DNA of 64,000 bases from a virus, in the IMG/VR virus record IMGVR_UViG_3300031963_009547; one strand, given 5' to 3'. Below the pieces are notes generated by a model. The model made no database searches. It was not told the DNA's origin and worked only from the letters and a program-made list of their open reading frames with translations. How positions within the stretch are numbered: the first letter of the stretch is position 1; each line of letters begins with the position of its first letter. The position numbers and the translations under genes are program-made. Below, piece after piece: positions 2,882 to 50,863 of this stretch.

Positions 2882-2951
2882 GATTTTTTTTTGTATTACG
2901 ATATATTTATAAAACAAAGATAATAAAAAAATTAAAATAATTAAAAAAATT

Positions 2952-8250: not shown

Positions 8251-8298
8251 ATTGATTTTGTTTTTACAAATATAATACAAAACTCCATATATAAAAAA

Positions 8299-13585: not shown

Positions 13586-13983
13586 ATTTAGTTTTTATAA
13601 ATGAATTAGGACCCAATTTTAGGGGAGATAACATTTATGAATTTATATTTTCAGATATTGATGACGTACACGGTGATGAGTGGGATAGTGAAACAGCAAA
13701 TGGAAAACCAACACCACCTTACGTTGAATTTATAAAAAAAGTTGGTGTATTAAAAAATTCTGAGGTTGAGTTAGAATTGATACAAAATTCAGATTTTTTT
13801 GGAATGTACGATTCTGTTGACGGTGTAATTGCTTTGGGTTGGGAAAAACCTGATAATTATGAAGGGAAAAGATTAGTATTTCAATATGGTGAAAGTATTG
13901 AAATTGTAGAAAATAAATTATACGAGAAGGACATCGTATTAAAATGGGAAAAAAATTTAGTTAGTGATGAGACATATGAATAA
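13582..13983 (+). CDS. hypothetical phage protein
   Basis: 133 aa; ATGA overlap with the upstream gene. Confidence 0.75.
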   Translation: MNLVFINELGPNFRGDNIYEFIFSDIDDVHGDEWDSETANGKPTPPYVEFIKKVGVLKNSEVELELIQNSDFFGMYDSVDGVIALGWEKPDNYEGKRLVFQYGESIEIVENKLYEKDIVLKWEKNLVSDETYE

Positions 13984-35682: not shown

Positions 35683-36660
35683 TTATTTATTTTTATAGTA
35701 ATCCATCCAATACTCAATCATCTCATCTAACATAGATTCAAAAGTATATTTTGGATTCCAATTTAATCCATCTCTCAATTTTGATGAATCTCCTTTTAAA
35801 TTATATAACTCTTCAGGTCTGAAATGTTTCTCATCAATTACTATGTATTCACTATAATCTAATCCTAATGAACTAAATACGTAACTACATAAGTCTTGTA
35901 CCGAATGTGATATTCCTGTAGAACAAACGTAGTCTTCAGGTTTATCTGATTGTAGCATCAACCACATTGCTTCGACATAATCTTTAGCATGTCCCCAATC
36001 TCTTGTTGCATCTAAATTACCAATATTTAATTTTTCTTGTAAACCTAAACTAATTCTAACTGCTGCTTTAACAACTTTATTTGTTACAAAGTTTGTCCCT
36101 CTTCTTGGTGACTCGTGGTTAAACAAAATACCATTCCATATTTTCATACCATATGAATTGCGATAGTTTCGACAAATGTTGTATGAAAATACCTTAGCAC
36201 ATCCATAAGGCGATACTGGATTCATCGGTGTTGTTTCTCTTTGAAACCCATCTTCATCGATAGTATTTCCAAACATTTCAGATGACGATGCTTGGTAAAT
36301 TTTAATATCTTTATTTAATAGTTTTACCGCCTCCAATAAATTAAGAGTTCCAAGACCCGTTACATTTGCGGTGTAGATTGGTTGGTCAAAAGATATTCTT
36401 ACATGTGATTGTGCGGCCAAATTATAAATTTCAATTGGTTTAACTTCTTGTATTACTCTTGTAAGTGAAGATAAATCAGTTAAATCCGCATAGTGTAAAT
36501 GTAATTTATCGAATACGTCATCTAATCTACTTGTTTGATTTTCCGATACTGAATTTCTCTTTAATGTTCCGTGAACTTCATATCCTTTTTCTAAAAGAAA
36601 TTCTGCAAGATACGAACCATCCTGTCCGTTTATTCCTGTTATTAGTGCTACTTTTTTCAT
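35683..36660 (-). CDS. gmd: GDP-mannose 4,6-dehydratase
   Basis: LITGINGQDGSYLAE, NLAAQSHV, QASSSEMFG, FNHESPRRG, RDWGHAKDYV. Confidence 0.95.
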   Translation of the reverse strand: MKKVALITGINGQDGSYLAEFLLEKGYEVHGTLKRNSVSENQTSRLDDVFDKLHLHYADLTDLSSLTRVIQEVKPIEIYNLAAQSHVRISFDQPIYTANVTGLGTLNLLEAVKLLNKDIKIYQASSSEMFGNTIDEDGFQRETTPMNPVSPYGCAKVFSYNICRNYRNSYGMKIWNGILFNHESPRRGTNFVTNKVVKAAVRISLGLQEKLNIGNLDATRDWGHAKDYVEAMWLMLQSDKPEDYVCSTGISHSVQDLCSYVFSSLGLDYSEYIVIDEKHFRPEELYNLKGDSSKLRDGLNWNPKYTFESMLDEMIEYWMDYYKNK

Positions 36661-37805
36661 TCGTTAATTATTGATACAATAGTTTGGATTTCATCAAAAG
36701 TCAATCCTTGATGGTTTGGTATGTAGAACCCAAACTTGTTTATTAATTCACAATTTTTTAATTCAACAGGTCCGTATTTTTTTACCCACATCGGTTTTTT
36801 AGACATGTCTCCAGCAATTAAAGGTCTAACCTCAATATTTTTTTCTAATAGTTTATTAACTATTTCATTTCTTCTTTCATTAATAATTGGGTATGCAAAG
36901 TTCGATACAAAATCACCTTTGTTTTCACCAACCATAATTTTATTATCACCAATTAGTGATTTATATTTTTTGAAATTTTCATTTCTTTTTTCACTATACC
37001 CGTCTAATTTATCAATTGCCATTAAACCAATAAATGCTTGTAAATCTGTTGCTCTTAAATTAAAACCCGGTAAATAAAAAGTATATAAAGAGTCAAACTC
37101 ATTTACATTATTTTCTTTTCTTAATTTTTCTTGTATGTGTGTAGGTAAATCCCTATCCCAACCGTGACTTCTCATCATTAATAATGAATAATAAAAATCC
37201 TCATCGTTTGTATTTATGAACCCACCTTCAATTGTGCTTAAGTGATGTCCAAAATACATCGAAAAAAATGATGCAAAACCAAAAGAACCTAAATACTTTC
37301 CTTGATATTTTGACCCCATACTTTCGCAAACATCTTCCAATAGAATTACATTGTATTTTTCACACAGTGAAATTACTTTTTCCATATTAGGAACTAAACC
37401 TAATGGTGAAACTAAAATCATACAAGATGGGTCATTTGTTTTAAACAACTCTTCTAAATGTTCTAAATCACAAGAAAGGTCTTCTAAGTTAGAGTCACAA
37501 AGTATTGGTTCCATACCTAATAACATTGGGGAACTAACATCGGTAGCCCAACTTAATCCAGGAACAACAACTTTGTTATTTTTTAATTTACCGGTGTGTA
37601 ATAATGATGCTAACGCTAAAATAATTGCTGACGACCCGGAATTAACATAGACAGAATATTTCGTACCTATTTTTTTAGCCCATTTTGATTCTAATTCCCA
37701 TGTTAAATCTCCTTTTGTAAGTCTTGGTATTTCATCTTGGTTTAACCATTCTATTAATTTATTGATGTCATTTTTATCAATTGTGTCTTTAACTAACTTT
37801 ATCAT
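36657..37805 (-). CDS. colD: DegT-fold PLP enzyme, probable GDP-4-keto-6-deoxymannose 3-dehydratase (ColD-like)
   Basis: VNSGSSA, LEDVCESMG, FSMYFGHHLSTIEGG (His in place of the Schiff-base Lys), RSHGW; 382 aa. Confidence 0.75.
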   Translation of the reverse strand: MIKLVKDTIDKNDINKLIEWLNQDEIPRLTKGDLTWELESKWAKKIGTKYSVYVNSGSSAIILALASLLHTGKLKNNKVVVPGLSWATDVSSPMLLGMEPILCDSNLEDLSCDLEHLEELFKTNDPSCMILVSPLGLVPNMEKVISLCEKYNVILLEDVCESMGSKYQGKYLGSFGFASFFSMYFGHHLSTIEGGFINTNDEDFYYSLLMMRSHGWDRDLPTHIQEKLRKENNVNEFDSLYTFYLPGFNLRATDLQAFIGLMAIDKLDGYSEKRNENFKKYKSLIGDNKIMVGENKGDFVSNFAYPIINERRNEIVNKLLEKNIEVRPLIAGDMSKKPMWVKKYGPVELKNCELINKFGFYIPNHQGLTFDEIQTIVSIINE

Positions 37806-38703
37806 AATATGAATTATATACTAATTTTATACCTTCACTCAAAGGTGTGAATTCAAAATTTGGAAACAAATTTTTAAATTTATCTATTGAAACGTCTTTT
37901 CTAAATTGACCGTTTGGTTTTGTTGTGTCCCATTCAATTTTTATATTTTTACTATCGGTCACATCTAAAGCAATTTCAGCCATTTGTTTAATTGAAAGGT
38001 TTTCTTCAGTTGCAACATTGAAGCTTTCAGTTACATCTTTTTCAATTGTCTGTTTAATTATTTCTGCAAAATCACCAGCATACATGAATTGTCTTAGAGG
38101 TGTCCCATCACCAAAAAGAGTAATCTCACCTGAATTGTTATTTTTAGCGTAATTAATTTTTTTAATTAATGATGTTAAAAAATGACTTTTATTTTCGTCG
38201 TCCTTATCTTCAATACCATATAAGTTACAAGGAATTAAATATTGATAATTTAAATTATACTGAAGATTATATGCATCTATTTGTGCTCCCATTGAACGTT
38301 TAGAATAACCATAAGAGAAATTGGTTATAGTTGGTGGTCCCTCATGTAACATGGTTTCATCCATTGGGTATTTTCTTGCAACATCAGGGTATATACAAGT
38401 ACTTAAAATACCTATGAATTTTTTTACTTTGAAAATTCTTGAGTATTCGATTAGTAGTGTATTCATTAAAACATTCTGTGTAAAATATTCGGCAGGATGG
38501 TTAATATTATCAATTATACCACCAACCCTTGCTGCTAAATGAACTACTATATTAGGTTTATGTTTTAAAAACATTCGTTTAACACCTTCTTCCGTTGTTA
38601 AATCATAATCATTAGATGATATATAAATTGCTTCTGGTAATATCTTTTTTAAATATTTCCCAACTAATCCTGAACCGCCCGTTACTAATATTTTACTGTT
38701 CAT
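37789..38703 (-). CDS. GDP-L-fucose synthase family epimerase/reductase (Fcl or ColC)
   Basis: TGGSGLVG, HLAARVGGI, LSTCIYP, YGYSKR, PCNLYG, GDGTPLRQF. Confidence 0.88.
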   Translation of the reverse strand: MNSKILVTGGSGLVGKYLKKILPEAIYISSNDYDLTTEEGVKRMFLKHKPNIVVHLAARVGGIIDNINHPAEYFTQNVLMNTLLIEYSRIFKVKKFIGILSTCIYPDVARKYPMDETMLHEGPPTITNFSYGYSKRSMGAQIDAYNLQYNLNYQYLIPCNLYGIEDKDDENKSHFLTSLIKKINYAKNNNSGEITLFGDGTPLRQFMYAGDFAEIIKQTIEKDVTESFNVATEENLSIKQMAEIALDVTDSKNIKIEWDTTKPNGQFRKDVSIDKFKNLFPNFEFTPLSEGIKLVYNSYYDKVS

Positions 38704-38998
38704 TTTTAAAAAAAACTAAATCGTTTATTGCTTTGTCATCTACGATTAAATCGTAGTGTAATTTTCTACCAACATATAAATCATGGTATTTTACCCCCCA
38801 AGTTTCCAATTGATTTTTTGTTAAATTAAACCAATCAATTCCTGTTGTTGCCCCTCTTGCTGTGTCTATTATTATATGATTACCATCGTGATATAAATCA
38901 TTTAATTTTTTTATTCTTTGGTGAAAGGGTTCTGCCTTTTCGTAATCACCATATGTGTTAGTACATAAAGTACCATCTAAATCAAAACAATAAATCAT
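38693..38998 (-). CDS. minimal HAD phosphatase (capsule-biosynthesis type)
   Basis: FDLDGTL, TARG, IVDDKA. Confidence 0.8.
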   Translation of the reverse strand: MIYCFDLDGTLCTNTYGDYEKAEPFHQRIKKLNDLYHDGNHIIIDTARGATTGIDWFNLTKNQLETWGVKYHDLYVGRKLHYDLIVDDKAINDLVFFKNEQ

Positions 38999-39939
38999 AT
39001 AATTGTAATTTTTTTTGGTTCTGAAAATTCTAATGTTTGAGGTCTGTTATTTTTAATTATAATATCTAAAATTTCATCATCACTTAACCCAACCAATTTA
39101 AAAGTTAAATTTGTTTTTTTAGAATCAATTAAACTAACATTTATTTCTGTATTTGTCACAGACCACTCTTCATTCAAAACATAGAAATCTACGTTACTAC
39201 CATAGTGAGTAATAAACCCTCCCGCATCGGCTGCGGTTAAAACCCCCCTTGATAAATAAAATAATGATATTAGTTCATCCTGAGTTAATGACTCATCAAT
39301 TTCCAAATAGTTTTCAGTAATATTATAAGATTGTGGTGGAAATCCTATATTAATGATATTATATCCGTTTGATATTAATTTATTTAATAATTTTTCTAAA
39401 TGGGGTAATGACGATAAAGTGTTATGTTCAGTCGATTTATTTTTAAAATTTCTAGTAATTAATATAAAGGTTTTATCTGTAAAAAGATGACCGTATTTTT
39501 TTTTAATCGATTTAAAAACTTTTTCAGTTGGTTTTATGGTCAAACCATTATCAAAGAATTTTTTAGCATAATCTAAAGAAGTGGTGTATGTGTTTCTTGG
39601 AGAAAATACATCAACAACACCGTCATCATATTCTGTTTTTTGCCAACTACGGATTTCAATATTATCAATACCATATTTTTCAGTACAGTAATTAATACAT
39701 TTTTCTAAAAAAAGGTCATTTTCTCGTGATGCACTATCTAATACAGATGGGTATGAAAAAAAATCTCCATTTTTTACGGTAATAATTTCATCAACTGATG
39801 ATAACACAATATAACCATTATACTGTGTTATTCCGATAACTTTAGAACCGTCAGTTTTAGATTCATTTATAAAAGAATTAAATGGTAATAATTGATTCCA
39901 TTCTTCAGGTTGTGTAATATAAATTAATACCTTAGACAT
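38995..39939 (-). CDS. hypothetical protein, possible GT-B glycosyltransferase
   Basis: Weak GT9-like pattern (ELISLFYLSRGVLTAADAGG) within the glycan operon. Confidence 0.4.
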   Translation of the reverse strand: MSKVLIYITQPEEWNQLLPFNSFINESKTDGSKVIGITQYNGYIVLSSVDEIITVKNGDFFSYPSVLDSASRENDLFLEKCINYCTEKYGIDNIEIRSWQKTEYDDGVVDVFSPRNTYTTSLDYAKKFFDNGLTIKPTEKVFKSIKKKYGHLFTDKTFILITRNFKNKSTEHNTLSSLPHLEKLLNKLISNGYNIINIGFPPQSYNITENYLEIDESLTQDELISLFYLSRGVLTAADAGGFITHYGSNVDFYVLNEEWSVTNTEINVSLIDSKKTNLTFKLVGLSDDEILDIIIKNNRPQTLEFSEPKKITII

Positions 39940-39946
39940 TTTTATT

Positions 39947-40777
39947 TTAGATATTATTAACTTTTCTAAGTTTTTTAGCTATTGGTTTTTCAGTTTCATA
40001 AACAACTTTGACACCGTCACCTAAAACCGTTTCCATTTTACGAATTCCAGACATTAACTCCCCAACGTTTTCAATAGACGCAGCTTGGTCTGAACCATAC
40101 ATTGTTCTGTCTTTTGTAATGTGAAATTCAATACATTCTGAACCTAATGCAACAGCCCCAAAACAAGGAATCATCCCACTTGCGTGATTAGAAAACCCAA
40201 TTTTATATTGTGGGTATTTTTCCTTCAAAGTTTTGATGTAATTTAAATTAATTTCTTCGTCTTTTGTTGGGTATGTACTTGTACATGCTAAAACATATTC
40301 CACATTATTTAAAATATTGATTGCGGAATCAACTTCTCTTTCTGTAGACATACCAGTAGAAACGATGATTGGTTTACCTGTTGAATTTAATTTTTCCAAA
40401 AATGTTTTATCTGTTAATAAAGCTGAAGCTACTTTATGATATTTCACATTTAAGTTTGATTCAATTAAATCGACACTTTTTGTATCCCAACAAGAAACAA
40501 TAAAATCTAAACCTAATGCGTTTGAGAATTTTTCTAAATCTTTATATTGTTCAATACTAAACTCTAATCCCATCTTTTGTTCACGATTAGTTGTTCCCCA
40601 TGGGGATTCTCTTTGTGCGTCCAATTCTTCTTTAGTGTATACCGACTCGATATCTCTTTTTTGAAATTTAACAGCATCACATTCATAAGTTTTTGCCATA
40701 ACTATTAATTCTTTCGCCAAATCAAGGTCACCATTATGGTTGATTCCGATTTCTGCAATCACATAAGTCTTTTTCAT
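39947..40777 (-). CDS. neuB: NeuB-family ulosonic acid synthase, short form without C-terminal SAF domain
   Basis: IAEIGINHNGD, AVKFQKR, IVSTGMS, CTSTYPT, GFSNH, IEFHITKDR..GSDQAAS; 276 aa. Confidence 0.9.
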   Translation of the reverse strand: MKKTYVIAEIGINHNGDLDLAKELIVMAKTYECDAVKFQKRDIESVYTKEELDAQRESPWGTTNREQKMGLEFSIEQYKDLEKFSNALGLDFIVSCWDTKSVDLIESNLNVKYHKVASALLTDKTFLEKLNSTGKPIIVSTGMSTEREVDSAINILNNVEYVLACTSTYPTKDEEINLNYIKTLKEKYPQYKIGFSNHASGMIPCFGAVALGSECIEFHITKDRTMYGSDQAASIENVGELMSGIRKMETVLGDGVKVVYETEKPIAKKLRKVNNI

Positions 40778-40790
40778 TTTTTAATATTTT

Positions 40791-41894
40791 TTATTTTTTA
40801 TTTGAAAGTTCAACTTTTACTTTTTTTAGTGCTGAACCGATAATCTGATGCATATCATAGTATTTGTATTCTGCCAATCTACCTCCGAATATTACATTAG
40901 GTAGTGTTTCTGCTAACTTTGCATACTTTTGATAAACTTCATTGTTTTTTTTATCATTTATTGGATAATATGGTATATCGTTTTCAGTGTAAGTTTTTGA
41001 ATATTCTTTAGTAATCCATGTAACATCTGACTTTGAATTTTCGAAGTGTTTATGTTCGGTAATTCTTGTATACGGTACTTCTTCATGTGTGTAGTTCATG
41101 ACAGCACAACCTTGGAAGTCTTCCAAATCTACTTTTTCATGAACAAAATCTAATGACCTATACTCTAATTTACCGTATTTATAATCAAAAAATTCATCTA
41201 TTTTACCTGTGAAAACAATTTTATCCGCTATTGAGTAATAGTAATCTTTGTTATCAAAAAAATCAACATCGGTCATTACATCAATACCATCAAATATTCT
41301 TTCAAATATTTTTGTATATCCATCTACAGGTATACCTTGATATTTGTCTGAAAAATAATTGTCATTGAAATTAGTTCTTATGGGTATTCTTTTGAGAATT
41401 GCCGATGGTAAATCTTTAGGGTCTCTACCCCACTGTTTTTTTGTGTATCCTTTAATAAAAATTTCATATATTTCTTTACCTATTTGTGAAAGTGCAAAAG
41501 TCTCGAAATTTTCATCTTGTAAATTTTTAGAAACAACTGAATTTAATTTTTCTTTAGCCATTTCAGGGCTTGTTACACCCCACACTTGACATAGTGTTAG
41601 TAAATTAATCGGGAAAGAATATATTTTATCTAAATAACTAACTTTAGGTCTGTGCTGGTAGTTATTAAATTCAGTAAATTGATTTATCCAATTCCAAATA
41701 GTTAAATCATTAGTGTGAAAAATGTGTGAACCATATATATGAACGTTTATATTATCTTTTTTTTCGCTATAACAATTACCACCTATGTGTTTTCTTTTTT
41801 CAATAACTAAACATTTTTTACCCGATTTAGTCATCTCATGCGCGAATACCGCACCAAATAAACCACTGCCGACAATTAAATAATCATATTTCAT
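40791..41894 (-). CDS. glf: UDP-galactopyranose mutase
   Basis: IVGSGLFG, HIGGNCY, HIYGSHIFHT, YFSDKYQGIP, GRLAEYKYYDMHQ. Confidence 0.95.
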   Translation of the reverse strand: MKYDYLIVGSGLFGAVFAHEMTKSGKKCLVIEKRKHIGGNCYSEKKDNINVHIYGSHIFHTNDLTIWNWINQFTEFNNYQHRPKVSYLDKIYSFPINLLTLCQVWGVTSPEMAKEKLNSVVSKNLQDENFETFALSQIGKEIYEIFIKGYTKKQWGRDPKDLPSAILKRIPIRTNFNDNYFSDKYQGIPVDGYTKIFERIFDGIDVMTDVDFFDNKDYYYSIADKIVFTGKIDEFFDYKYGKLEYRSLDFVHEKVDLEDFQGCAVMNYTHEEVPYTRITEHKHFENSKSDVTWITKEYSKTYTENDIPYYPINDKKNNEVYQKYAKLAETLPNVIFGGRLAEYKYYDMHQIIGSALKKVKVELSNKK

Positions 41895-42901
41895 ATAATA
41901 TCACCATTATTATAATAGGAATACCATAAATCTACAATCTTATTAAGTTCTTTTGATAATTTCCATGGTTTATTATGACCTGTATAGTGTATAATGTGTA
42001 TTTTATCATCGTTAATGAAAAGTTGGTTGTCTTTAATTCTCACTTCAGAACGACGTGTTCCCGTTAAAGGTGATACTTCCGTTAAATTTAAAAAGGTGGT
42101 GTCAGATAATTCACCATCACCTAAATAACCTCCTAAGTCATTTAACCCACTTAAATTCCATTGGGACCCCATATTATAAAATTTAATTTTATTTTTAACT
42201 AAAAATAAATTAATGTATGATTGTGCGAGAAATTCAAAAGAATGGCCAAAAGGAATTAACTCATCAAAAGAATCTGACATTTTTTTAAACATATCACTTT
42301 TTGCTGCAAAAACACCGCCATTCATACTTAAATAATCATCAACATTTTCTAACCCTAATTCATTCACAATTACATCCATACGTCCGTGATTAATTCTCTC
42401 ATCTTTATTCAAGGTGAGGCTTCTTAATTTAGTTAAGTATTCGTGTCTTTCCGCACCATCAAATGTAATTTGATTTCTAAATGGCCATATCCATTTAGGT
42501 TCTAAAAAATTAGCAACACCGTCATCCATTGAGCCAACAAATTCATTTGTGTCTAATTTTTCAAAATATTCTGAAAGGTCAGATAAAACTAATGTATCCA
42601 CTTCTAATGATAAAATATTTTCAAATCCCGACATCCAAGAAAAAAGTTGTGCAAAACAAGAAAAATCCTTCATAAACCCACCTTGCCAAAATCTAACTTT
42701 ACCTGATAGTAATTCATTTACAAATTTTAAATCAACAACTTTTATATTTTTTTCTTTTAGTTTATTTAAATTTTCTGCACTTATACCAGTATCAAAAACA
42801 CAAACACCGACATTAGGGTTTGATATTTTTAAAGAGTTTAACGTTGCAACTAAACCTAAAAAATATTCGTCATTAGTTGCTAAAACTATACCATTCTTCA
42901 T
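41891..42901 (-). CDS. glycosyltransferase family 8
   Basis: LEVDTLVLSDL, MNGGVF, Q..IN, WN, IIHYTGHNKPW. Confidence 0.8.
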   Translation of the reverse strand: MKNGIVLATNDEYFLGLVATLNSLKISNPNVGVCVFDTGISAENLNKLKEKNIKVVDLKFVNELLSGKVRFWQGGFMKDFSCFAQLFSWMSGFENILSLEVDTLVLSDLSEYFEKLDTNEFVGSMDDGVANFLEPKWIWPFRNQITFDGAERHEYLTKLRSLTLNKDERINHGRMDVIVNELGLENVDDYLSMNGGVFAAKSDMFKKMSDSFDELIPFGHSFEFLAQSYINLFLVKNKIKFYNMGSQWNLSGLNDLGGYLGDGELSDTTFLNLTEVSPLTGTRRSEVRIKDNQLFINDDKIHIIHYTGHNKPWKLSKELNKIVDLWYSYYNNGDII

Positions 42902-42906
42902 TTTTT

Positions 42907-43482
42907 TTATTTAAACATTTTATTTTCTACTATTTCTAAAATTGTATGCCCAAGTAGTGTGTGACATTCTTGTATTCTTGCTGTGTTATTTGAAGGTATG
43001 ATTAGATTGTAATCTGATATGTCTTTCATTTCTCCACCATCATTACCAATAAAAGATACAACAATAGCACCTTTGTTTTTGGCAACTTCAATAGCTTTAA
43101 TAACATTTTTTGATTTACCTGATGTTGAAAAACAAATTAGAATGTCACCTTCTTTTATTGATGATTTAATTTCTCGTGAAAAGATATCTGAGTATGAATA
43201 ATCATTTCCTACCGCAGTTAAGTAAGAAACATTAGACGCTAATAAAACCACCTCTAACGGGTCTCTATCAAAATAGAAACGACCACTTAATTCTGCTGAA
43301 AGGTGTTGTGCGTCTGCAAAACTACCACCATTACCACAAAAATATACCTTATTACCGTTTTTATAACACTCGATGATTTTTTCTGCAATCTTATTTGAGT
43401 TGTTTATAATTTCTTCATTATTCAATAATTCAGTCTTCAATCTAATTGACTCCTGAATATTTTTTATAACCATTTCTACCAT
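42907..43482 (-). CDS. gmhA: sedoheptulose-7-phosphate isomerase-like SIS protein
   Basis: CGNGGSFADAQHLSAEL, TAVGNDY, FSTSGKS, TARIQECH. Confidence 0.9.
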   Translation of the reverse strand: MVEMVIKNIQESIRLKTELLNNEEIINNSNKIAEKIIECYKNGNKVYFCGNGGSFADAQHLSAELSGRFYFDRDPLEVVLLASNVSYLTAVGNDYSYSDIFSREIKSSIKEGDILICFSTSGKSKNVIKAIEVAKNKGAIVVSFIGNDGGEMKDISDYNLIIPSNNTARIQECHTLLGHTILEIVENKMFK

Positions 43483-44294
43483 ACTGTTTTACCTCCGTCT
43501 ATAACGACATTCGAACCTGTCATATATGAACTTGCGTCAGAACACATAAACACAATCGCACCTTTATATTCATCAATATGAGCCATTCTACCCATCGGTA
43601 TAATATTAGATAACTTCGTTACAAAATCAACAGGATGGTCATTATAAACTCCTGTCGGACTTAAACAATTTACTCTAATATTATTTTTAGCGAAATATGT
43701 AGAAAGATATTTGGTCATACCAATTACTGCCCACTTGGCTGCAGAATACGTAATTGGTTTTACATTCTGTTCGTTTTCAGATTTTGTTTCATCTCTGTAT
43801 ATTCTTTGGTCAGGAGCAATTACACCTAAGTCGGATGAAATGTTTAGTACTACACCACCACCTGTTTCTAACATTTTATTACAAATAACTTGTGAAGTAA
43901 TAAAAGTTCCGTTTATAATTGCATCAATACCTTCTTTAAAATATGATTCAGTCATAACCTCAAATCTTGTTTCAGGTGTTAAACTTTTATCGTCCTTTGT
44001 AACTTTTGGGTCTTTAGCAGCATTGTTAATAAGGATATCAATTCTTTCATATTTGTTTGATACCTCATCCACACTATTTTTATCTGTGACATTCATGTAT
44101 TCCATAAACACATTTTCTTCTCCATAAATTGAAGAAAGCTCTTTGTGTTTCTTAGTTAACATATCCATGTCTACATCGGTAAGAATTACTTTAGCTCCAT
44201 ATTCTAAAAGAGCTTCAGCGTGTTTTGGACCTAATAATCCACCAGCACCTGTAATCAAAGCAACCTTACCATCTAAATCAAATAAGTTTCTCAT
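43476..44294 (-). CDS. short-chain dehydrogenase/reductase (PtmA/FlmA-like)
   Basis: TGAGGLLG, INNAA, YSAAK, RVNCLSPTG, YMTGSNVVIDGG. Confidence 0.88.
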   Translation of the reverse strand: MRNLFDLDGKVALITGAGGLLGPKHAEALLEYGAKVILTDVDMDMLTKKHKELSSIYGEENVFMEYMNVTDKNSVDEVSNKYERIDILINNAAKDPKVTKDDKSLTPETRFEVMTESYFKEGIDAIINGTFITSQVICNKMLETGGGVVLNISSDLGVIAPDQRIYRDETKSENEQNVKPITYSAAKWAVIGMTKYLSTYFAKNNIRVNCLSPTGVYNDHPVDFVTKLSNIIPMGRMAHIDEYKGAIVFMCSDASSYMTGSNVVIDGGKTVW

Positions 44295-45058
44295 AATAAT
44301 GTTTTGATTTTTTGGTATGTATTTTTTATGTAATTTATTTCATCACCATCTACATCTCTTGCAAGTTGCAATATGATGTTATCAGTGTAATTAATATTTT
44401 TTAATGAATCAATTATAATTTTAAAATCAGTATCACCCAACCCAAAATGTTTTGTTTCTCCATTAAAGGTTCTATCTTTAAAATGTACATTTTTTATTTT
44501 TGACCCAAAGTAATGTATCAATTCTTTATGGTCTATTTTTTCTTTATATGTTGAGGTGAAATTACCGGTGTCGTAGGTAATAAAAAAATTGTTTTTATTA
44601 TTGACGACATCCATCACAATTTCTTTATCACATTCAAATTCAAAACAGAAATTAATCGATGGGTATTTTTCAGATATTGGGATTATGTTTTTTAAAAATT
44701 CATATCTGATATATTCATTTTCTACTGAACTATCTTCTAAAAGGGGTATTACAATTTTATTTAATTTTAGTTCTACCATTTTATCTAAAACTGGTACTAA
44801 ATTTTCATTCATAAATTCATCTTTGTAAAATGAATTATTAACCATAGTATCTACACAAACTGATAAGATGTTAGTAGGTAAATTAGGTTCATTAAATAAT
44901 GGATTATTTGAGTTATCATTTGGAGTTATTAACCATTCAATACCACATAATTCAATGTGATTTAAAACGTTAAATTCTGTCTTCCAATTAGATGGAAACT
45001 CTTGCATTTTTTTATTGACGGGTTCACTAAGACGACCCTGAAGAATTCCTACTTTCAT
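44291..45058 (-). CDS. sugar-phosphate epimerase/isomerase, TIM barrel (UlaE-like)
   Basis: MKVGILQGRLS, YDTGN, NVHFKD, GLGDTDF. Confidence 0.78.
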   Translation of the reverse strand: MKVGILQGRLSEPVNKKMQEFPSNWKTEFNVLNHIELCGIEWLITPNDNSNNPLFNEPNLPTNILSVCVDTMVNNSFYKDEFMNENLVPVLDKMVELKLNKIVIPLLEDSSVENEYIRYEFLKNIIPISEKYPSINFCFEFECDKEIVMDVVNNKNNFFITYDTGNFTSTYKEKIDHKELIHYFGSKIKNVHFKDRTFNGETKHFGLGDTDFKIIIDSLKNINYTDNIILQLARDVDGDEINYIKNTYQKIKTLL

Positions 45059-45468
45059 AATAACTCAACAAATTCTATAATATTATTTTCTGGGTCCATA
45101 CCAAAAAAAACTTTAACTGTTTTTTCATCAGAAATAGTTGGGGTATTGATGACAGATAAATTATTATCAATAAACTTATTGTAAAGAAAATTAACATCTT
45201 TTATAGTCAATGCAAAGTGAGTGTAACCATTTTCTAAAAGACTTTTTTTATTTACATCACAACTCCCAAAATAAAGTAATTCAACTATTGTTTTGTTATC
45301 AACCCCCAGTTTAATTATTCTTGGAGATTCATTATCAGAATTAAGAATATGATTTAAAAATCGACCTTCTTCTATTTTATCGTAAAGTATTTCTAAACCA
45401 ATTAAATCACGGTAAAACCATAACATTTTATCTAAGTCGTTTACGACTATACCAACATGTCTAAACAT
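45055..45468 (-). CDS. VOC/glyoxalase-family metalloenzyme
   Basis: HVGIVVNDLD..FY.D.IG, ELL, HFAL, DPENNIIEFVE. Confidence 0.85.
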   Translation of the reverse strand: MFRHVGIVVNDLDKMLWFYRDLIGLEILYDKIEEGRFLNHILNSDNESPRIIKLGVDNKTIVELLYFGSCDVNKKSLLENGYTHFALTIKDVNFLYNKFIDNNLSVINTPTISDEKTVKVFFGMDPENNIIEFVELL

Positions 45469-46781
45469 TCTATCAAACTTTCTTTTAATACTCCAATACC
45501 TTCAATTAATGCATCATCATCGATTGTTAATGGTGGACCTATTTTTAAGGTTCCTGATTGAGTCCTAATCGATAATAAACCTTTTCTCATAGCCACTTCT
45601 ATAATCATATCAACAAAATCAATATCATTTCCATTTGGTGATTTTATGAACACACCAGATAATAACCCTTCGCAGTTTATTTTTTTTACATAATCAGGCA
45701 TTTCTGTTTTCCATTTTAACAATTCCATTCTCATTATTTCTCCCTTCCTATAAGACTCATTAACTAAGTCATTATCTAAAAGATATTTAACAGAAGCGTT
45801 TGATGCTGCAACCGCAACAGGATTACCACCATGCGTACTATTGTAAGACATGTCATTATTAATAATTCCATTATTAGTTATGACACAAGATAATGGTAAC
45901 GAAGATGAAATACCTTTAGCACAAACAATTATATCTGGAACAATTTCAAAATGTTCATATGCAAATAATTTACCAGTTCTACCAAAACCTGATTGTATTT
46001 CGTCTATAATTAACAAAACTTTATTTTCATCACACCATTTTCTTAATAATTTAACATAATCTTTTGATGCGAATTCAGCAGACCATCCTTGGTATGGTTC
46101 CATGATTACTGCGGAATATTCAGAAGGATTTAAACCTTTAAAGTATTTCTCAAATAGTTCTTGTGGTGTTAATTTTTCGTTTTCTAATGTAATGGTGTCG
46201 GGGTAAGGTAAATGTGTGACATATGTTTTAACAGGTATCCATTCTTGTGATTTAAATTTTCCACCCGCCATAGCTGAACCCATGGTTTTACCATGATACC
46301 CATTATTAAATGAAATAATTTTATTTTTACCAGAATGTTTAATTGACATTTTGATTGCACACTCAACCGCTTCAGAACCTGTTGATAAAAATAACACCTT
46401 GTCAAAATTTTCAGGAGTGGATTCTACCAACAATTTAGAAAATTCAGACCTCTCTTTTGTTGGGTAATAATATGCGTTTAATAAATTTTTATTAGTTGTG
46501 GATATAATTGCGTCTTTTACTTTTGGGTTTGAGTGACCTACATTTGCAACAAAAATTGATGATGTAAAATCAATCCATTTATTACCTGAAATATCATAAA
46601 TTGAATAGTTCGATGCCGAATCCCACACAACGGGTAATTGGTCGTTCATTGAATCGGGCTCATATTTGATGCAATCATTTAAATATTGTAATGATTGTGG
46701 TGAAGGTATTGGTGTGATGATGTTTCGATAACGAGTTTTTACAACATCACAGTTAAATGGAGTTAACTGAAACTTATGCAT
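45447..46781 (-). CDS. class III PLP aminotransferase
   Basis: DISGNKWIDF, STGSEAVE, YHGKT, EPYQG, DEIQSGFGRTG, PDIIVCAKG, THGGNP. Confidence 0.9.
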   Translation of the reverse strand: MHKFQLTPFNCDVVKTRYRNIITPIPSPQSLQYLNDCIKYEPDSMNDQLPVVWDSASNYSIYDISGNKWIDFTSSIFVANVGHSNPKVKDAIISTTNKNLLNAYYYPTKERSEFSKLLVESTPENFDKVLFLSTGSEAVECAIKMSIKHSGKNKIISFNNGYHGKTMGSAMAGGKFKSQEWIPVKTYVTHLPYPDTITLENEKLTPQELFEKYFKGLNPSEYSAVIMEPYQGWSAEFASKDYVKLLRKWCDENKVLLIIDEIQSGFGRTGKLFAYEHFEIVPDIIVCAKGISSSLPLSCVITNNGIINNDMSYNSTHGGNPVAVAASNASVKYLLDNDLVNESYRKGEIMRMELLKWKTEMPDYVKKINCEGLLSGVFIKSPNGNDIDFVDMIIEVAMRKGLLSIRTQSGTLKIGPPLTIDDDALIEGIGVLKESLIECLDMLV

Positions 46782-47442
46782 TTTTTTTATTTAAGATAAA
46801 CTCAATATAATTAAAATCCTCGATAGTGTCAATTTCATAAGTTTTATCAGTAATAAAAGAATAAATTTTATCACCGTAAAAATTGTCTGAATTCATAAAC
46901 ACTTCAGGATTTACTATATCTATATATCCATTTGGTGAATACGTTTTGGGATAACTTTGTCTAGGTAAGTTAGTATCCATACCCTCTACAATAGGACTCC
47001 AATATATCCCGTCTTGTTTATAAAATTTGTAAACAGATTCTGAAGTTTCGTGGGCGGACCTAAGACTTGTGATTAATGATTTATTCTTTAAAAATACTTC
47101 AATAGCATCGTCTATAACTGAATGATTAATCAAAGGTGTTGTTGCTCGTAAATGTATAATTGGTTCAGTATAGTTTAATTCCTTACAAAAATGTCTGAAA
47201 GAATCGATATCTAACGATGTGTCAGTTGACAATTCAGAAGGTCTTATAATTATTTTACATCCTAATTTTTTTGATATCTCAATAATTTCTTCGTCGTCGG
47301 AAGAAACGTATATATCCGTAATTTTTTTTGATTCTTTTGCCGAAGTGATAACATATTCAATTAAAGGTTTACCTAATAATTTTTTTATATTTTTTTTGGG
47401 TATTCCTTTACTACCTCCTCGAGCTAAAATTAAAGCTATCAT
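46774..47442 (-). CDS. neuA: acylneuraminate cytidylyltransferase family (CMP-ulosonate synthetase)
   Basis: ILARGGSKGIPKKNI, VSSDD, RPSELS, TTPL, PRQ..P...NG, EIDTIEDF. Confidence 0.9.
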   Translation of the reverse strand: MIALILARGGSKGIPKKNIKKLLGKPLIEYVITSAKESKKITDIYVSSDDEEIIEISKKLGCKIIIRPSELSTDTSLDIDSFRHFCKELNYTEPIIHLRATTPLINHSVIDDAIEVFLKNKSLITSLRSAHETSESVYKFYKQDGIYWSPIVEGMDTNLPRQSYPKTYSPNGYIDIVNPEVFMNSDNFYGDKIYSFITDKTYEIDTIEDFNYIEFILNKKNA

Positions 47443-48137
47443 TTTTTTTCCGCTTTACAAATTAACATTGCCTCTTTTGAGAATCTAATTATTTTGTTTG
47501 TTTTTTTACCCCATAATACTTTTTCAAAAGGTGAGTAAGGTAAAGGTAATTTTTGAATTATATACCTAAAAATGTTTAAAAATGGATATTTCCATGTTAA
47601 TGGTAACTGATACAAATAATCACATTCAGAGACAAATCCTGATAATTCACAGGCGGTTTCTAATGAGTATCGTGTAAAAGGGGTAACGTGAGTATGGTCA
47701 ATATAAAATGCTTCTTTATATGAATGTTTCCAGCTTGGCGCCATACATATTAATACTCCCCCTTTTTTTAACATTCTATAAGATTCATCTAATAAAATAT
47801 CTGGATTATGTAGATGTTCGACAACAGATTTTGAAAAAATAAAATCAAATTTTTCATCTTTAAATGGGTATTTTTTCTCATTTAAATTATATGACTTAAA
47901 CTTTTTTGATGGTATATTTTCTTTAGCTGAGTCAGAAATATCTATTCCATATGCGTCTATACCACACTCAATGAAACACTTAGTTAACACACCGTCTCCA
48001 CAACCAATATCTAAAATTTTATCACCCTTTTTTATATTATATTTTTTTATAATATAGTTAACTAACTTTTTTGGATAGTCTGTTTTATTCTCTTTATATG
48101 TTGTTTGTACGTAATTTGGATTAAATATTGAACTCAT
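47439..48137 (-). CDS. class I SAM-dependent methyltransferase
   Basis: ILDIGCGDG, GIDIS, FDFIFSKSVVEHL, LKKGG. Confidence 0.88.
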   Translation of the reverse strand: MSSIFNPNYVQTTYKENKTDYPKKLVNYIIKKYNIKKGDKILDIGCGDGVLTKCFIECGIDAYGIDISDSAKENIPSKKFKSYNLNEKKYPFKDEKFDFIFSKSVVEHLHNPDILLDESYRMLKKGGVLICMAPSWKHSYKEAFYIDHTHVTPFTRYSLETACELSGFVSECDYLYQLPLTWKYPFLNIFRYIIQKLPLPYSPFEKVLWGKKTNKIIRFSKEAMLICKAEKK

Positions 48138-48862
48138 ATTTTTTCAGTTTTGAATATAGTTTTAAGAATTGAATCTTCGCTGGTGTTTATTATCTCAATA
48201 CCAAGATTTTTTACACTATCATTTATAATTTTAAAATCATTTAAAATATTATTTATACAGACATCAAATTCAATCACTGAATGAGGTCTCATATATGAAT
48301 TATAATAACCTTTTTTATAATCTAAATCTACACCGGATATAAAAATTTTATTACAACCAAGTAATATTGATAACGCTAACATATGTATTGCAACTGTATC
48401 ACCCGTACTATATCTTAAATCATAATTTGTAAATTTTTGTAATTCTTCTTGTATTGTTAATCTACCATCTATAAAATTTTTACATCCATTAGGGCAATTA
48501 TTACATTTAGAATTATTAAAATGTCTTTGGTCGTACCCAATATAATTTAATCCTGAGGAGTTTTTTTCTATCCATTCTCTTGGGGTTGAGTCAACTGAAT
48601 CCGAATGTACTATTGTTGTACCCTCATATTTTTTAAATCTTTCTAACATAAATGGAAATGTTTGCAATGAATTTGCAAACACCCAATAATCGGGTTTTAA
48701 ATTTGTGTTAATATCAATATCATTACAACATATTAAAATTATTTCGTCTCTATTTTTTGTAATGTATTCTATAGTCTCTGATAAGGACGGACCTAAACCA
48801 CATATAAATGCAGTTTTATTTAGATGTTTGTTTTTAATTTGCTCAAAATTATATTGTATCAT
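48134..48862 (-). CDS. Maf/DUF115-like (MAF_flag10) protein, putative CMP-ulosonate transferase
   Basis: AFICGLGPSL, CCN...LKPDY, TVA..ALSILLGCNKIFISGVDL. Confidence 0.7.
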   Translation of the reverse strand: MIQYNFEQIKNKHLNKTAFICGLGPSLSETIEYITKNRDEIILICCNDIDINTNLKPDYWVFANSLQTFPFMLERFKKYEGTTIVHSDSVDSTPREWIEKNSSGLNYIGYDQRHFNNSKCNNCPNGCKNFIDGRLTIQEELQKFTNYDLRYSTGDTVAIHMLALSILLGCNKIFISGVDLDYKKGYYNSYMRPHSVIEFDVCINNILNDFKIINDSVKNLGIEIINTSEDSILKTIFKTEKI

Positions 48863-50085
48863 TTGAATGGTGATTCTATTAAATTATTTTTAATCATTTC
48901 TCTATTGATTAGGTATAAAACGTTTTTAGGTTTTAAATGTATATCATCTACATAATATATTTCTTTAGTCGTGTCTCCATCAACTAAGTAATCATATATA
49001 CTTAAAAATTTGTAACCTTTTTTTGAACACTCTTCCTTAACTCTTTGATTAAAATATTCTTTAAATTTTCTTCTTTCGCTATATGTACCTCTTGGTTTAT
49101 CAAACGCTTCTGGATTTTCTCTATAATAGAATATAAACGGCTCTTCTTTTAATTCCGGTGTTACCGAAAATAAAATTATATTTTTATTATATAAATTGTC
49201 AATAAATTGAAAATACCTATCAATAATTTCATCTATTAATTCAATATAATCTTTGTTTTGTTCGTCCATATTTTTTTTTACTTGAGCTCTACAATCTATT
49301 TCACCAAAACAAATAAGAATATTTTCATCATAAGATACATTATTAATTATTTCATATACATTTGGTTTGTTAATTAAGTTGTATGCTAAATAAGGTCCGA
49401 ACCTATAGGTATGATAAGAATCATATACAATTAATTCATTCATATTAAATAAACTTTCTTTATTAGAAAAAATACTAATATGACTATCACCAAAACAATT
49501 TATTTTTTGTATTTTTTTCTGCGTCCACCCTTCAAAAATAAATTCGTAATTAAAAATAGTATCATAATATACTGATACCTTTTCCAAAATTGAATTTCGT
49601 TTTTCAACATATCCGTCGACAAACCCGTGAAATTGTACCAAATAATTTTCAAAGACATTTAATTCAGGTATTGATGACAGATATTCTAATAATCTATACT
49701 CTTCCCCTTCAATATTAATTTTTATTAAATCTACTTGAAAAATTTGCTCCTCGAATAAAAATTCTTTTATAGATTTAAGTTTTATTTTTTCAGTTCTGTC
49801 GTTTTGTGAATATATTGATGATGCATCACCATTTGTGCTTATATATTCATCTCTTGTGATATCTGACAAACCAAAATTATAAACTTTTATATTTTCATTA
49901 TTTTTATATCTATGTACTATCTTTTCATAGAATGATAACACAGGTTCAAATATATATATTTTTGGATTTTCGTATCTGTCAATACAAATTTGAGCAAAAT
50001 CACCCATATACCCACCAACGTCAAAAATTACAGAATCTTTTTTTAATTCAAATTTCATTACATCATTCCAAGTTGGATTTCCCAT
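48859..50085 (-). CDS. FkbM methyltransferase fused to an SGNH-like domain
   Basis: N-terminal FDVGGYMG, FEPV, LIKINIEGEE; C-terminal FGDSH, FGEIDCR, DDIHL. Confidence 0.75.
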   Translation of the reverse strand: MGNPTWNDVMKFELKKDSVIFDVGGYMGDFAQICIDRYENPKIYIFEPVLSFYEKIVHRYKNNENIKVYNFGLSDITRDEYISTNGDASSIYSQNDRTEKIKLKSIKEFLFEEQIFQVDLIKINIEGEEYRLLEYLSSIPELNVFENYLVQFHGFVDGYVEKRNSILEKVSVYYDTIFNYEFIFEGWTQKKIQKINCFGDSHISIFSNKESLFNMNELIVYDSYHTYRFGPYLAYNLINKPNVYEIINNVSYDENILICFGEIDCRAQVKKNMDEQNKDYIELIDEIIDRYFQFIDNLYNKNIILFSVTPELKEEPFIFYYRENPEAFDKPRGTYSERRKFKEYFNQRVKEECSKKGYKFLSIYDYLVDGDTTKEIYYVDDIHLKPKNVLYLINREMIKNNLIESPFK

Positions 50086-50088
50086 TTT

Positions 50089-50862: not shown

Positions 50863-50863
50863 A

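Follow-up and report, generated by a model that had tools for sequence, protein, structure and literature searches.

The window analysed here, 64,000 nucleotides of the virus record IMGVR_UViG_3300031963_009547, is phage DNA: a terminase, a portal, a major head protein and a T4-type prohead protease are all present, and the source is a large uncultured T4-like phage. A single long operon extends from 35683 to 54655 with intergenic gaps of -22 to +13 bases, and a glycan island of ~20 kb carries many glycosyltransferases and several independent sugar pathways (GMD, a ColD-like enzyme with a reductase, and Glf). Ten genes had been claimed at 38693-48862 in a first-pass annotation, and domain, motif and profile matches recovered all ten on the minus strand (Table 1). 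The last eight were described as overlapping and indeed do so, by 4 to 22 bases each. Three further genes that the annotation did not list lie in the same interval: a glycosyltransferase-like 314-aa ORF, Glf and a GT8 glycosyltransferase.

Table 1 Genes at positions 38693 to 48862 of the window.
Feature	Coordinates	Strand	Basis
Mini-HAD phosphatase, 101 aa, proposed ulosonate omega-phosphate phosphatase	38693..38998	-	HAD motifs
Glycosyltransferase-like 314-aa ORF, accessory, outside conserved core	38995..39939	-	Nearest Atlas clusters
SAF-less NeuB-type ulosonate-phosphate synthase, 276 aa	39947..40777	-	PF03102, 208 bits
UDP-galactopyranose mutase (Glf)	40791..41894	-	PF03275, 278 bits
GT8 glycosyltransferase	41891..42901	-	PF01501, E 3.7e-12
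GmhA-type sugar-phosphate isomerase (SIS), 191 aa	42907..43482	-	TIGR00441, 183.6 bits
SDR oxidoreductase, proposed maker of keto intermediate	43476..44294	-	adh_short_C2, E 4e-35
Xylose-isomerase-like TIM barrel (AP_endonuc_2), proposed epimerase next to carbonyl	44291..45058	-	PF01261
VOC (glyoxalase-fold) protein	45055..45468	-	PF00903
Class III (omega-type) aminotransferase	45447..46781	-	PF00202, 284 bits
NeuA/PseF-like CMP-ulosonate synthetase (CTP_transf_3)	46774..47442	-	PF02348, 104 bits
Class I SAM methyltransferase (MT), putative N- or O-methylation of sugar	47439..48137	-	Methyltransf_23, _11 and related models
Single-domain DUF115/MptE-like protein, 242 aa, proposed CMP-ulosonate transferase	48134..48862	-	PF01973, 62.7 bits

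Neighbourhood conservation had been suggested as a check on this gene set, which does recur: 11 related phage contigs retain the order DUF115-(MT)-NeuA-aminotransferase-VOC-TIM-SDR-GmhA-NeuB-HAD, their proteins sharing 60-99% identity. Such an arrangement lies well outside what chance would produce. The block is contiguous in phage loci L001-L007 and L011, and NeuB and HAD adjoin or overlap in most related phages. In the present phage alone, it is broken up by Glf, GT8 and the 314-aa ORF. Glf and GT8, which lie between GmhA and NeuB, are missing at that site in 15 other phage loci and were inserted together. The 314-aa ORF has no Pfam family match and homologues confined to L001-3 and L006; its nearest Atlas clusters are named glycosyltransferase, one with GT9 on 30% of members, and it is probably a glycosyltransferase.

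Individual enzymes are replaced within otherwise alike blocks, the aminotransferase step being filled by three unrelated families (class III, class IV and DegT). Class III and VOC give way to a class IV enzyme in L008 and L010, where NeuA identity drops to 36-38% while NeuB, SDR and TIM remain at 72-92% (NeuB alone, 77-88%). This exchange of NeuA, but not NeuB, along with the aminotransferase points to NeuA working on the aminated sugar. L009 and a marine Kyanoviridae record, MH319754.1, have DegT beside NeuB. VOC accompanies the class III enzyme in every case and is missing from loci that have class IV or DegT instead. In L013 and L014, B12 radical SAM enzymes and a small cupin (with a small SPASM radical SAM enzyme in L013) replace SDR, TIM and SIS. 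Elsewhere the mini-HAD alternates with a KdsC-like HAD, and the SDR with GFO or radical SAM enzymes; the methyltransferase is variably present.

The NeuB/NeuA pathway had been described as a phage one. It does occur in phages, but it is not specific to them: the gene set is widespread but uncharacterised, being common to other phages, many bacteria and archaea. SAF-less NeuB homologues (46-53% identity) were found in 80 cellular loci from bacteria and archaea of many phyla, which include SIS in 28 cases, SDR in 27, TIM in 20 and class III aminotransferase in 7; in the other 52, no SIS gene occurs within 10 kb. SDR homologues in cellular NeuB loci share 43-50% identity, KdsC-like HADs adjoin NeuB, and GFO oxidoreductases follow TIM. 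A NeuB-NeuA-class III aminotransferase-VOC-MT set is present in one Leptospirales, one Elusimicrobiota and one Methanoperedens genome. HAD::SIS (HAD::GmhA) fusion proteins are present in five loci; like the KdsC-like HADs, such fusions neighbour SAF-less NeuBs of the same clade as the phage enzyme.

The phage NeuB covers model positions 1-277 out of 329 in PF03102 and thus lacks the SAF domain. It scores 226.6 bits against NeuB_NnaB (cut-off 399.65) and 153 against PseI (cut-off 340), and a tree with just two SAF-bearing outgroups assigned it to clade B among the SAF-less sequences. Linkage to SIS is restricted to clade B, which holds all phage sequences, and is not seen with the Streptomyces-type clade A. 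The neighbouring mini-HAD begins with MIYCFDLDGT and has weak Pfam matches (E 0.03-0.04), and its four HAD motifs (D6, D8, T10; T/S46; K79; D88) are kept in 9 homologues. By these motifs alone, we propose that it is a phosphatase. The enzyme swaps, together with HAD::GmhA fusions beside SAF-less NeuB, support a route through phosphorylated sugars of the Kdn/Kdo type rather than through nucleotide-linked amino sugars.

The identity of the isomerase bears on the length of the product. By sequence and tree, the SIS protein looks like an ordinary GmhA: it matches B. pseudomallei GmhA (2x3y/2xbl) with 164 bits, as against E 0.005 for the KpsF model, and retains the DAQH..E, STSGKS and IQE.H...GH motifs. 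In a tree with just two GmhA copies unlinked to NeuB, the NeuB-linked copies interleave with GmhAs sited elsewhere in their own genomes. The NeuB-linked copy is the sole GmhA homologue in five genomes (two Chloroflexota, one actinobacterial MAG and two archaea) of lineages presumably without LPS heptose, and an HldE kinase above cut-off was found in none of the five. Since the isomerase appears to be an ordinary GmhA, a heptose-derived, ten-carbon backbone is plausible, and we put it forward tentatively, at somewhat less than even odds.

Alternatively, the same scheme could run on nine carbons. The GmhA-like enzyme or a host phosphomannose isomerase would supply mannose 6-phosphate, NeuB would form Kdn-9-P, and HAD would release Kdn, which would then be oxidised, epimerised, aminated, methylated and CMP-activated. 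Streptomyces, which has Kdn cell-wall polymers, carries the same SAF-less NeuB family at 46-48% identity. S. scabiei is listed among SAF-less NeuBs (PMC8208679), and the sole characterised phosphosugar-using NeuB homologues yield Kdn-9-P or Neu5Ac-9-P (PMC6200933). The cupin of L013 and L014 in place of SIS, weakly similar to mannose-6-phosphate isomerase and lyxose isomerase, would also suit a hexose route, as would the 52 of 80 cellular loci without SIS, and we came across no naturally occurring ulosonic acid with ten carbons in the literature. However, SIS retains the GmhA active-site motifs, nests among ordinary GmhAs and is linked to clade B NeuB but not to the Streptomyces clade; the HAD::GmhA fusions beside NeuB and the five genomes with a single, NeuB-linked GmhA also speak against a Kdn-type product, which we consider rather unlikely. 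To our knowledge, isomerisation of fructose 6-phosphate by GmhA has never been demonstrated.

The first-pass annotation reported neither NeuC, PseB/LegB nor nucleotide-heptose partners of GmhA. A Pfam scan of the window, covering all but a few ORFs of at least 100 aa, likewise detected no NeuC, PseB/LegB or heptose kinase/nucleotidyltransferase domains, and five related phage contigs, the longest of 219 kb, contained none of NeuC, PseB/LegB, HldE, GHMP kinases, NTP_transferase or HddA-type and HddC-type genes. Because these contigs are fragments (13-75% complete), the absence of partner genes is weak evidence, and host supply is also possible. The genes could be divided among separate branches of a single glycan island. 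Host kinases and nucleotidyltransferases would then carry the GmhA product on to a heptose residue, a non-sugar substituent would come from the class III aminotransferase, VOC and methyltransferase, and NeuB and NeuA would use precursors made by the host for an ordinary sugar of the Neu, Leg or Pse type. The incomplete contigs, the several independent sugar pathways of the island and the best NeuA model, PseF, would fit such a division. Nevertheless, NeuB lacks SAF and falls well under the NeuB and PseI cut-offs, and the contiguous, overlapping block is kept as a unit in phages and cells. Together with the HAD::GmhA fusions adjoining NeuB, the exclusively NeuB-linked GmhA of the five genomes and the lack of precursor genes in related contigs, this makes a division into branches very improbable.

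Following condensation and dephosphorylation, the remaining enzymes would tailor the sugar. The top NCBIfam match of the SDR is PRK09186 (164 bits), with PtmA at 100 bits. The TIM-barrel model (pLDDT 90) is closest in fold to UlaE, ketose 3-epimerases, Art22 and YcjR (TM 0.7-0.75), and residues E140, D163 and H192 are invariant. The first-pass annotation had this enzyme epimerise a ketose phosphate before isomerisation. Given its YcjR/UlaE-like fold, epimerisation beside a keto group made by the SDR appears equally likely. The closest solved relatives of the class III aminotransferase are GABA and acetylornithine aminotransferases; the usual substrates of classes III and IV are amino/keto acids and omega-amines, not sugars.

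Amination might also precede condensation. On a hexose or heptose phosphate, SDR, TIM and aminotransferase would yield an amino-aldose phosphate, as in kanosamine formation (NtdC, NtdA, NtdB), and NeuB with PEP would give a neuraminic-acid-like product directly. In the kanosamine pathway a sugar 6-phosphate is oxidised, transaminated and then dephosphorylated by a HAD phosphatase, so the logic is established; SDR, TIM and SIS lie immediately upstream of NeuB (aminotransferase-VOC-TIM-SDR-SIS-NeuB-HAD), and the TIM fold resembles epimerases of phosphorylated ketoses such as UlaE. NeuB would, however, be expected to co-vary with the aminotransferase, and in L008 and L010 it is NeuA that diverges. 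Cellular NeuB-NeuA-class III aminotransferase-VOC-MT loci also exist without SDR, TIM or SIS, and we therefore regard early amination as improbable.

CMP activation and transfer are expected to complete the pathway. NeuA matches PseF best (110 bits), with KdsB models at 36-60 bits, all under cut-offs. The adjoining DUF115 protein has a weak full-length WaaZ match and carries conserved Cys residues and a YDQRHF motif. Its model (pLDDT 88) is most similar to CstII and Cst-I, then to MjHPPK and Maf (5mu5), and we propose a small transferase with a sialyltransferase-like fold, nearest to GT42 CstII. Points in common with GT42 enzymes and Maf/DUF115 proteins are a fold akin to that of CMP-sialic-acid-dependent transferases, a PF01973 match and a gene position next to the CMP-sugar synthetase, although the protein shares just 13-18% identity with CstII (TM ~0.5). 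Transfer by a Maf-like protein had been suggested. A putative transferase is retained here, but a Maf identity is not: the protein is a single domain of 242 aa, compared with >600 for Maf, and flagellin context is absent. Because it differs in this way from the multidomain Mafs that modify flagellin, its acceptor is no less likely to be a glycan than a protein.

These observations suggest, with a probability of roughly 0.6 for the overall scheme, that the interval is a phage copy of a pathway to a CMP-activated amino-ulosonic acid. The GmhA-type isomerase would convert a ketose phosphate to a manno-configured aldose phosphate, most likely sedoheptulose 7-phosphate to D-glycero-D-manno-heptose 7-phosphate and less likely fructose 6-phosphate to mannose 6-phosphate. 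SAF-less NeuB would condense this with PEP to a 3-deoxy-ulosonate omega-phosphate, from which the mini-HAD would remove the phosphate. The SDR would then oxidise a hydroxyl to a carbonyl (step 4), the UlaE/YcjR-like TIM enzyme would epimerise the adjacent carbon, the class III aminotransferase with its VOC partner would add an amino group, and the methyltransferase would methylate the product (step 7). Finally, the NeuA-like enzyme would form the CMP-sugar, and the small DUF115 protein would move the residue onto a glycan built by the island's glycosyltransferases. Gene content and conservation, fusions and enzyme replacements are observed directly, whereas we infer which substrates are used, in what order steps 4 to 7 run, where the amino group sits and what the acceptor is; the first-pass scheme, from aldose phosphate through to transfer, is upheld in outline by the comparative evidence. 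If this reading is true, genes of a phage operon build and attach a sugar resembling sialic acid, with perhaps ten carbons rather than nine.

The proposed pathway combines elements of several known systems. During Kdo8N formation in Shewanella, the free ulosonic acid is oxidised by the dehydrogenase KdnB and transaminated by KdnA before CMP activation. The same sequence is proposed here, although the phage would use an SDR and a class III aminotransferase with VOC and add an epimerase and a methyltransferase. As in the Kdo pathway (KdsD, KdsA, KdsC, KdsB), a SIS isomerase is followed by a PEP-dependent synthase, a HAD phosphatase and CTP_transf_3 activation, a parallel strengthened by the HAD::SIS fusions beside the synthase. 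Unlike in that pathway, the synthase is NeuB-family and not KdsA/DAHP synthase, the isomerase is GmhA-type and not KdsD/KpsF-type, and there is extra tailoring. Cellular loci pair TIM with a GFO/IDH/MocA dehydrogenase, as YcjR is paired with YcjS, and the TIM model resembles YcjR and UlaE; the phage partner, however, is an SDR, and an ulosonate or sugar phosphate would take the place of the glucoside as substrate.

In the Kdn pathway, a NeuB homologue acts on mannose 6-phosphate and a HAD removes the 9-phosphate; CMP-Kdn formation involves the synthase BT1714, the HAD phosphatase BT1713 and a CMP-Kdn synthetase in Bacteroides thetaiotaomicron, and also occurs in Prymnesium parvum (PMC6200933). 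The phage set similarly has a NeuB-family synthase (phosphorylated aldose plus PEP), a HAD phosphatase and a CTP_transf_3 cytidylyltransferase, with neither nucleotide-sugar precursors nor NeuC. It differs in its dedicated GmhA-type isomerase, its oxidation/epimerisation/amination/methylation module, its possible heptose substrate, and a mini-HAD of 101 aa where that pathway has a KdsC-like enzyme. Legionaminic and pseudaminic acid pathways share the proposed end product, a CMP-activated amino-ulosonic acid, and the SDR is weakly PtmA-like. Unlike those pathways, the phage set is without an NDP-sugar dehydratase, a hydrolysing 2-epimerase or an N-acetyltransferase, and it has a SAF-less synthase and a phosphatase.

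The window has a G+C content of ~30%, and genes for the large subunit of terminase, a portal protein, a major head protein and a T4-type prohead protease mark it as part of a large tailed phage. A megablast search of the interval against GenBank phages gave no match, so no near-identical relative is present there. Domain searches and HAD motifs recovered all ten genes that the first-pass annotation had named for a candidate amino-ulosonic acid pathway, and the coordinates confirm that the last eight overlap. The gene list was nevertheless incomplete, as a 314-aa ORF, a UDP-galactopyranose mutase (Glf) and a GT8 glycosyltransferase within the interval had been left out. Since related loci keep the block contiguous, these three genes are local insertions in the window phage. 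Glf and GT8 (40791-42901, minus strand) split the GmhA-type sugar-phosphate isomerase (SIS) from NeuB in this phage only; in related phages NeuB directly follows GmhA. One related locus, L008, also carries Glf, but elsewhere in the locus. The 314-aa ORF was considered as the HAD phosphatase and rejected for want of HAD motifs, and the 101-aa ORF is the HAD instead. Pfam models give the latter sub-cut-off scores, but the motifs DxDxT, S/T, K and D/DD are kept: D6, D8, T10, K79 and D88 are invariant in an alignment of nine sequences, and position 46 is T or S in all nine homologues.

Genes of the interval in the window phage, and replacement genes in two distant phage loci.
Feature	Position	Strand	Remarks
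HAD, 101 aa	38693-38998	-	N-terminus MIYCFDLDGT; motifs, Pfam weak
ORF, 314 aa	38995-39939	-	without Pfam family
NeuB, 276 aa	39947-40777	-	PF03102
UDP-galactopyranose mutase (Glf)	40791-41894	-	
GT8	41891-42901	-	
GmhA-like SIS protein	42907-43482	-	
SDR	43476-44294	-	
Xylose-isomerase-like TIM barrel	44291-45058	-	
VOC protein	45055-45468	-	
Class III aminotransferase	45447-46781	-	
CTP_transf_3 cytidylyltransferase (NeuA)	46774-47442	-	
SAM methyltransferase	47439-48137	-	
MptE-like/DUF115 protein	48134-48862	-	
Radical SAM/cupin replacements	L013 7448-9994; L014 15474-17452		cupin 112-118 aa

The synthase had been described as a short NeuB without a SAF domain, and this proved correct. It matches PF03102 with 208.1 bits (cut-off 22.1) over profile positions 1-241 of 241, and at 276 aa it aligns to positions 1-277 of 329 of TIGR03569, so that the C-terminal SAF (antifreeze-like) domain is missing, as it also is in 100 of 103 collected relatives. 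Scores of 226.6 for the NeuB_NnaB equivalog and 153 for the PseI equivalog are under the respective cut-offs of 399.65 and 340.25. A group of SAF-less NeuBs, mostly environmental and with Streptomyces scabiei as a member, is already on record (PMC8208679), and no functional study of them was found in the literature. A tree with 101 sequences, in which two SAF-bearing paralogues served as the outgroup, divides the SAF-less family into two clades. Clade A (20 rows) comprises Streptomyces NeuA-NeuB pairs and, from some Chloroflexota and actinobacterial loci, the second paralogues, while clade B (78 rows, SH-aLRT 96) contains all phage sequences and all loci with SIS, TIM and SDR genes. SIS accompanies 28 of ~63 clade B loci and none of 17 clade-A-only loci, a contrast inflated by relatedness. 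The phage NeuBs fall in a 29-row subclade (support 100), alongside cellular loci bearing a class III aminotransferase and a VOC protein. Two Chloroflexota loci (L029 and L039) each carry two to three SAF-less NeuB paralogues from both clades together with two NeuA homologues, which suggests that they make two different ulosonic acids in parallel.

The NeuB scan of IMG/VR yielded 16 loci. In the proposed check of neighborhood conservation, the order DUF115-(methyltransferase)-NeuA-aminotransferase-VOC-TIM-SDR-SIS-NeuB-HAD recurs contiguously in eight of them (L001-L007 and L011), with 60-99% protein identity, and in most of these NeuB directly abuts the mini-HAD. The Kdn-type pairing is thus seen in most related phages, with NeuB and HAD adjacent and NeuA within the block. 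In L008 and L010, a class IV aminotransferase stands in place of the class III enzyme and its VOC partner, and NeuA is only 36-38% identical, whereas NeuB, SDR and TIM are 72-92% identical. NeuB has a DegT-type aminotransferase as its neighbor in L009 and in MH319754.1, a marine Kyanoviridae record. Because three unrelated aminotransferase families occupy the same place, these gene neighborhoods argue strongly that amination is a genuine step of the predicted pathway. The joint exchange of aminotransferase and NeuA, with NeuB unchanged, further argues that NeuB would act before amination and NeuA after it. L009 also carries a phosphofructokinase-family gene (13228-14400, plus strand) within its NeuB-TIM-SDR ... 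HAD block. The distant loci L013/L016 and L014 have NeuB, NeuA, class III aminotransferase, methyltransferase and VOC genes plus B12-binding radical SAM enzymes and a small cupin; SIS and TIM are missing from all of them, and SDR from L013/L016. An additional 263-aa SPASM radical SAM enzyme in L013/L016 is of a size that we take to be like that of the BtrN dehydrogenase. A tblastn search of NeuB against GenBank phages returned three records, none of them a cultured phage bearing this block.

The pathway had been presented as a phage one, and it is not confined to phages. When species-representative genomes were searched with a profile built from the phage NeuBs, at least 596 matches came up, and the best 80, 45-53% identical, were examined. 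They stem from Acidobacteriota, Streptomyces, Chloroflexota, Spirochaetota, Myxococcota, Nitrospirota, candidate phyla and archaea. Within 10 kb of NeuB, these best 80 of at least 596 have NeuA (43), SIS (28), SDR (27), TIM (20), class III aminotransferase (7) and VOC (5), and the cellular SDRs are often 43-50% identical to the phage SDR. NeuB, NeuA, class III aminotransferase, VOC and methyltransferase genes are contiguous in one genome each of Leptospirales, Elusimicrobiota and Methanoperedens. In cells, KdsC-like HADs (~170 aa) adjoin NeuB, GFO/IDH/MocA oxidoreductases come after the TIM gene, and in five loci HAD::SIS fusion proteins lie beside NeuB. Since NeuB relatives with partner genes occur in so many phyla, the pathway, judged by gene content, is cellular and widespread, with a compact form in phages.

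Compared with the GmhA of Burkholderia pseudomallei, the phage isomerase (SIS) scores 164 bits, and with the enzyme from Campylobacter, 157 bits. With TIGR00441 it reaches 183.6 bits, under the equivalog cut-off of 209.45, and NeuB-linked copies in the checked cellular genomes reach 161-211 bits. Alignment to 2xbl and 2x3y indicates that DAQH..E, STSGKS and IQE.H...GH are kept, which we take to be the zinc and phosphate ligands of GmhA. The NeuB-linked SIS is the only GmhA homologue in five genomes (two Chloroflexota, an actinobacterial MAG, Thermoplasmatales and Methanoperedens) whose lineages presumably lack LPS heptose, and no HldE-type kinase scores above cut-off in any of the five, one of which has a partial 218-bit match. 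In the SIS tree, two GmhAs from elsewhere in their genomes nest among NeuB-linked copies, and one unlinked GmhA is sister to the NeuB-linked copy of the same genus. The NeuB-linked proteins therefore look like ordinary GmhAs rather than a diverged subfamily. Such a linked isomerase argues for a substrate other than the mannose 6-phosphate of the Kdn pathway. Sedoheptulose 7-phosphate would be isomerized to D-glycero-D-manno-heptose 7-phosphate, which the SAF-less NeuB would condense with PEP; the product would then be dephosphorylated, aminated, methylated and CMP-activated. Mainly because of the likeness to ordinary GmhA, we give a probability of roughly 0.4 to the reading that phage and cellular carriers make a ten-carbon amino-deculosonic acid, shown in the phage case on a phage-directed glycan. 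Against ten carbons, a weak resemblance to phosphomannose isomerase is seen in the small cupin of L013 and L014, and most cellular loci (best 80 of at least 596) are without a SIS gene nearby. To our knowledge, all known ulosonic acids have eight or nine carbons, and no ten-carbon one is on record in the literature. If GmhA truly feeds the synthase, the ulosonic acids would gain a member with ten carbons and a new route of amination, and the ten-carbon sugar would represent a never-described class of sialic-acid-like sugar.

Structures were predicted for the TIM and DUF115 proteins because PDB sequence searches gave no match for the former and a weak Maf match only for the latter. The TIM model (pLDDT 90) resembles UlaE, ketose 3-epimerases, Art22 and the 3-keto-glucoside 4-epimerase YcjR with TM 0.7-0.75. 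These enzymes abstract a proton adjacent to a carbonyl. A dehydrogenase (SDR in phage, GFO in cells) and the TIM protein can thus be modeled as an oxidize-then-epimerize module that could end in reduction or transamination. The class III aminotransferase has its closest relatives among GABA and acetylornithine aminotransferases, and its VOC neighbor accompanies it always but its replacements never. Terminal aldehydes are the preferred substrates of this subgroup, so by analogy amination may take place at the carbon from which the phosphatase removes the phosphate, although this is speculation; Kdo8N is a precedent for amination at that carbon.

The last gene of the block had been called Maf/DUF115-like. 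The PF01973 domain was found (62.7 bits), but as the only domain of a 242-aa protein that has no flagellin context, whereas Maf is a multidomain protein of ~600 aa acting on flagellin. The top fold matches of the model (pLDDT 88) are the GT42 sialyltransferases CstII and Cst-I (Foldseek E 4e-7, TM 0.50-0.54, identity 13-18%), then the archaeal MptE kinase and Maf (5mu5). The GT42 Pfam family was not reported for this protein, which shows weak but full-length similarity to the Kdo III transferase WaaZ. An MptE-type pterin pyrophosphokinase was considered and rejected, as MjHPPK ranks below the sialyltransferases and the gene lies beside a CMP-sugar synthetase among glycosyltransferases. We read the DUF115 protein, from its modeled fold, as a putative CMP-ulosonate transferase acting on a glycan.

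Canonical routes to ulosonic acids were looked for in the window and in five related phage contigs. The first-pass annotation had seen no NeuC, PseB or LegB and no partner for GmhA; accordingly, no canonical Neu, Leg or Pse precursor gene and no heptose-nucleotide gene is among the window ORFs scanned with Pfam. The wider search, in five incomplete contigs of 82-219 kb, agrees, in that it found none of NeuC, PseB/LegB, HldE, GHMP kinases or NTP_transferase. There, PF02350 had no match, PF02719 gave cross-hits to GDP-mannose 4,6-dehydratase (GMD) and SDR only, and TIGR02198, PF00288 and PF00483 (HldE and HddA/HddC-type partners) had no match. Because these contigs are fragments, the absence is supportive but not conclusive. 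The closest known pathway is that of Kdn (PMC6200933), while the Kdo pathway is closest in logic. In contrast to both, the present system has a GmhA-type isomerase, a SAF-less clade B synthase, a small DUF115 transferase and an added oxidation, epimerization, amination and methylation module. This predicted system appears to be a relative of these pathways. It did not appear in literature searches on nonulosonic acid genes in phages, gene clusters for Kdn and ulosonic acids of ten carbons; the cyanophage papers retrieved concern unrelated cytidylyltransferases and MPI. Among surface sugars, ulosonic acids such as Kdo, Kdn, sialic acid, legionaminic acid and pseudaminic acid have a key part in recognition, immunity and the adsorption of phages. 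The cassette occurs widely, in bacterial and archaeal phyla as well as in large phages, with no characterization found in the literature, and the compact, overlapping phage gene set is open to direct expression and reconstitution.

In the window phage, the block lies in a minus-strand sugar-metabolism island of ~20 kb that extends from PhoH (34937-35674) to dUTPase (54035-54655). As its genes are spaced by only -22 to +13 bases, the island is almost certainly a single transcription unit. This raises the question of why a lytic T4-like phage spends ~20 kb on glycan synthesis, with host-surface remodeling and decoration of its own virion as possible aims. At 35683-38703 (minus strand), the island encodes a GMD, a DegT-fold protein and an epimerase/reductase. 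The DegT-fold protein (36657-37805) has the motif GHHLSTIEGG, with His replacing the catalytic Lys as in ColD 3-dehydratases, and a role as a PseC/LegC-type partner was rejected on account of this His and of its place between GMD and the reductase. These genes look like a GDP-colitose-type 3,6-dideoxyhexose branch, whose sugar product could be used by GT11 and GT10 transferases encoded at 50089-51679. Directly upstream of the DUF115 gene, a 408-aa protein (48859-50085, minus strand) that combines an FkbM methyltransferase domain with a weak GDSL/SGNH match could be an extra sugar-tailoring enzyme (O-methylation or O-acetyl handling). Elsewhere, the window encodes a Laminin_G_3 lectin-fold protein that weakly matches the sialidase N-terminal domain (137-1111, plus strand) and, on the minus strand, a 678-aa Lon-like ATP-dependent protease (8299-10335; phrog_4871, 756 bits), two CAP (cysteine-rich secretory protein) domain proteins (3445-4020 and 7741-8280) and a pyrimidine-dimer DNA glycosylase of the T4 endonuclease V type (2381-3190).
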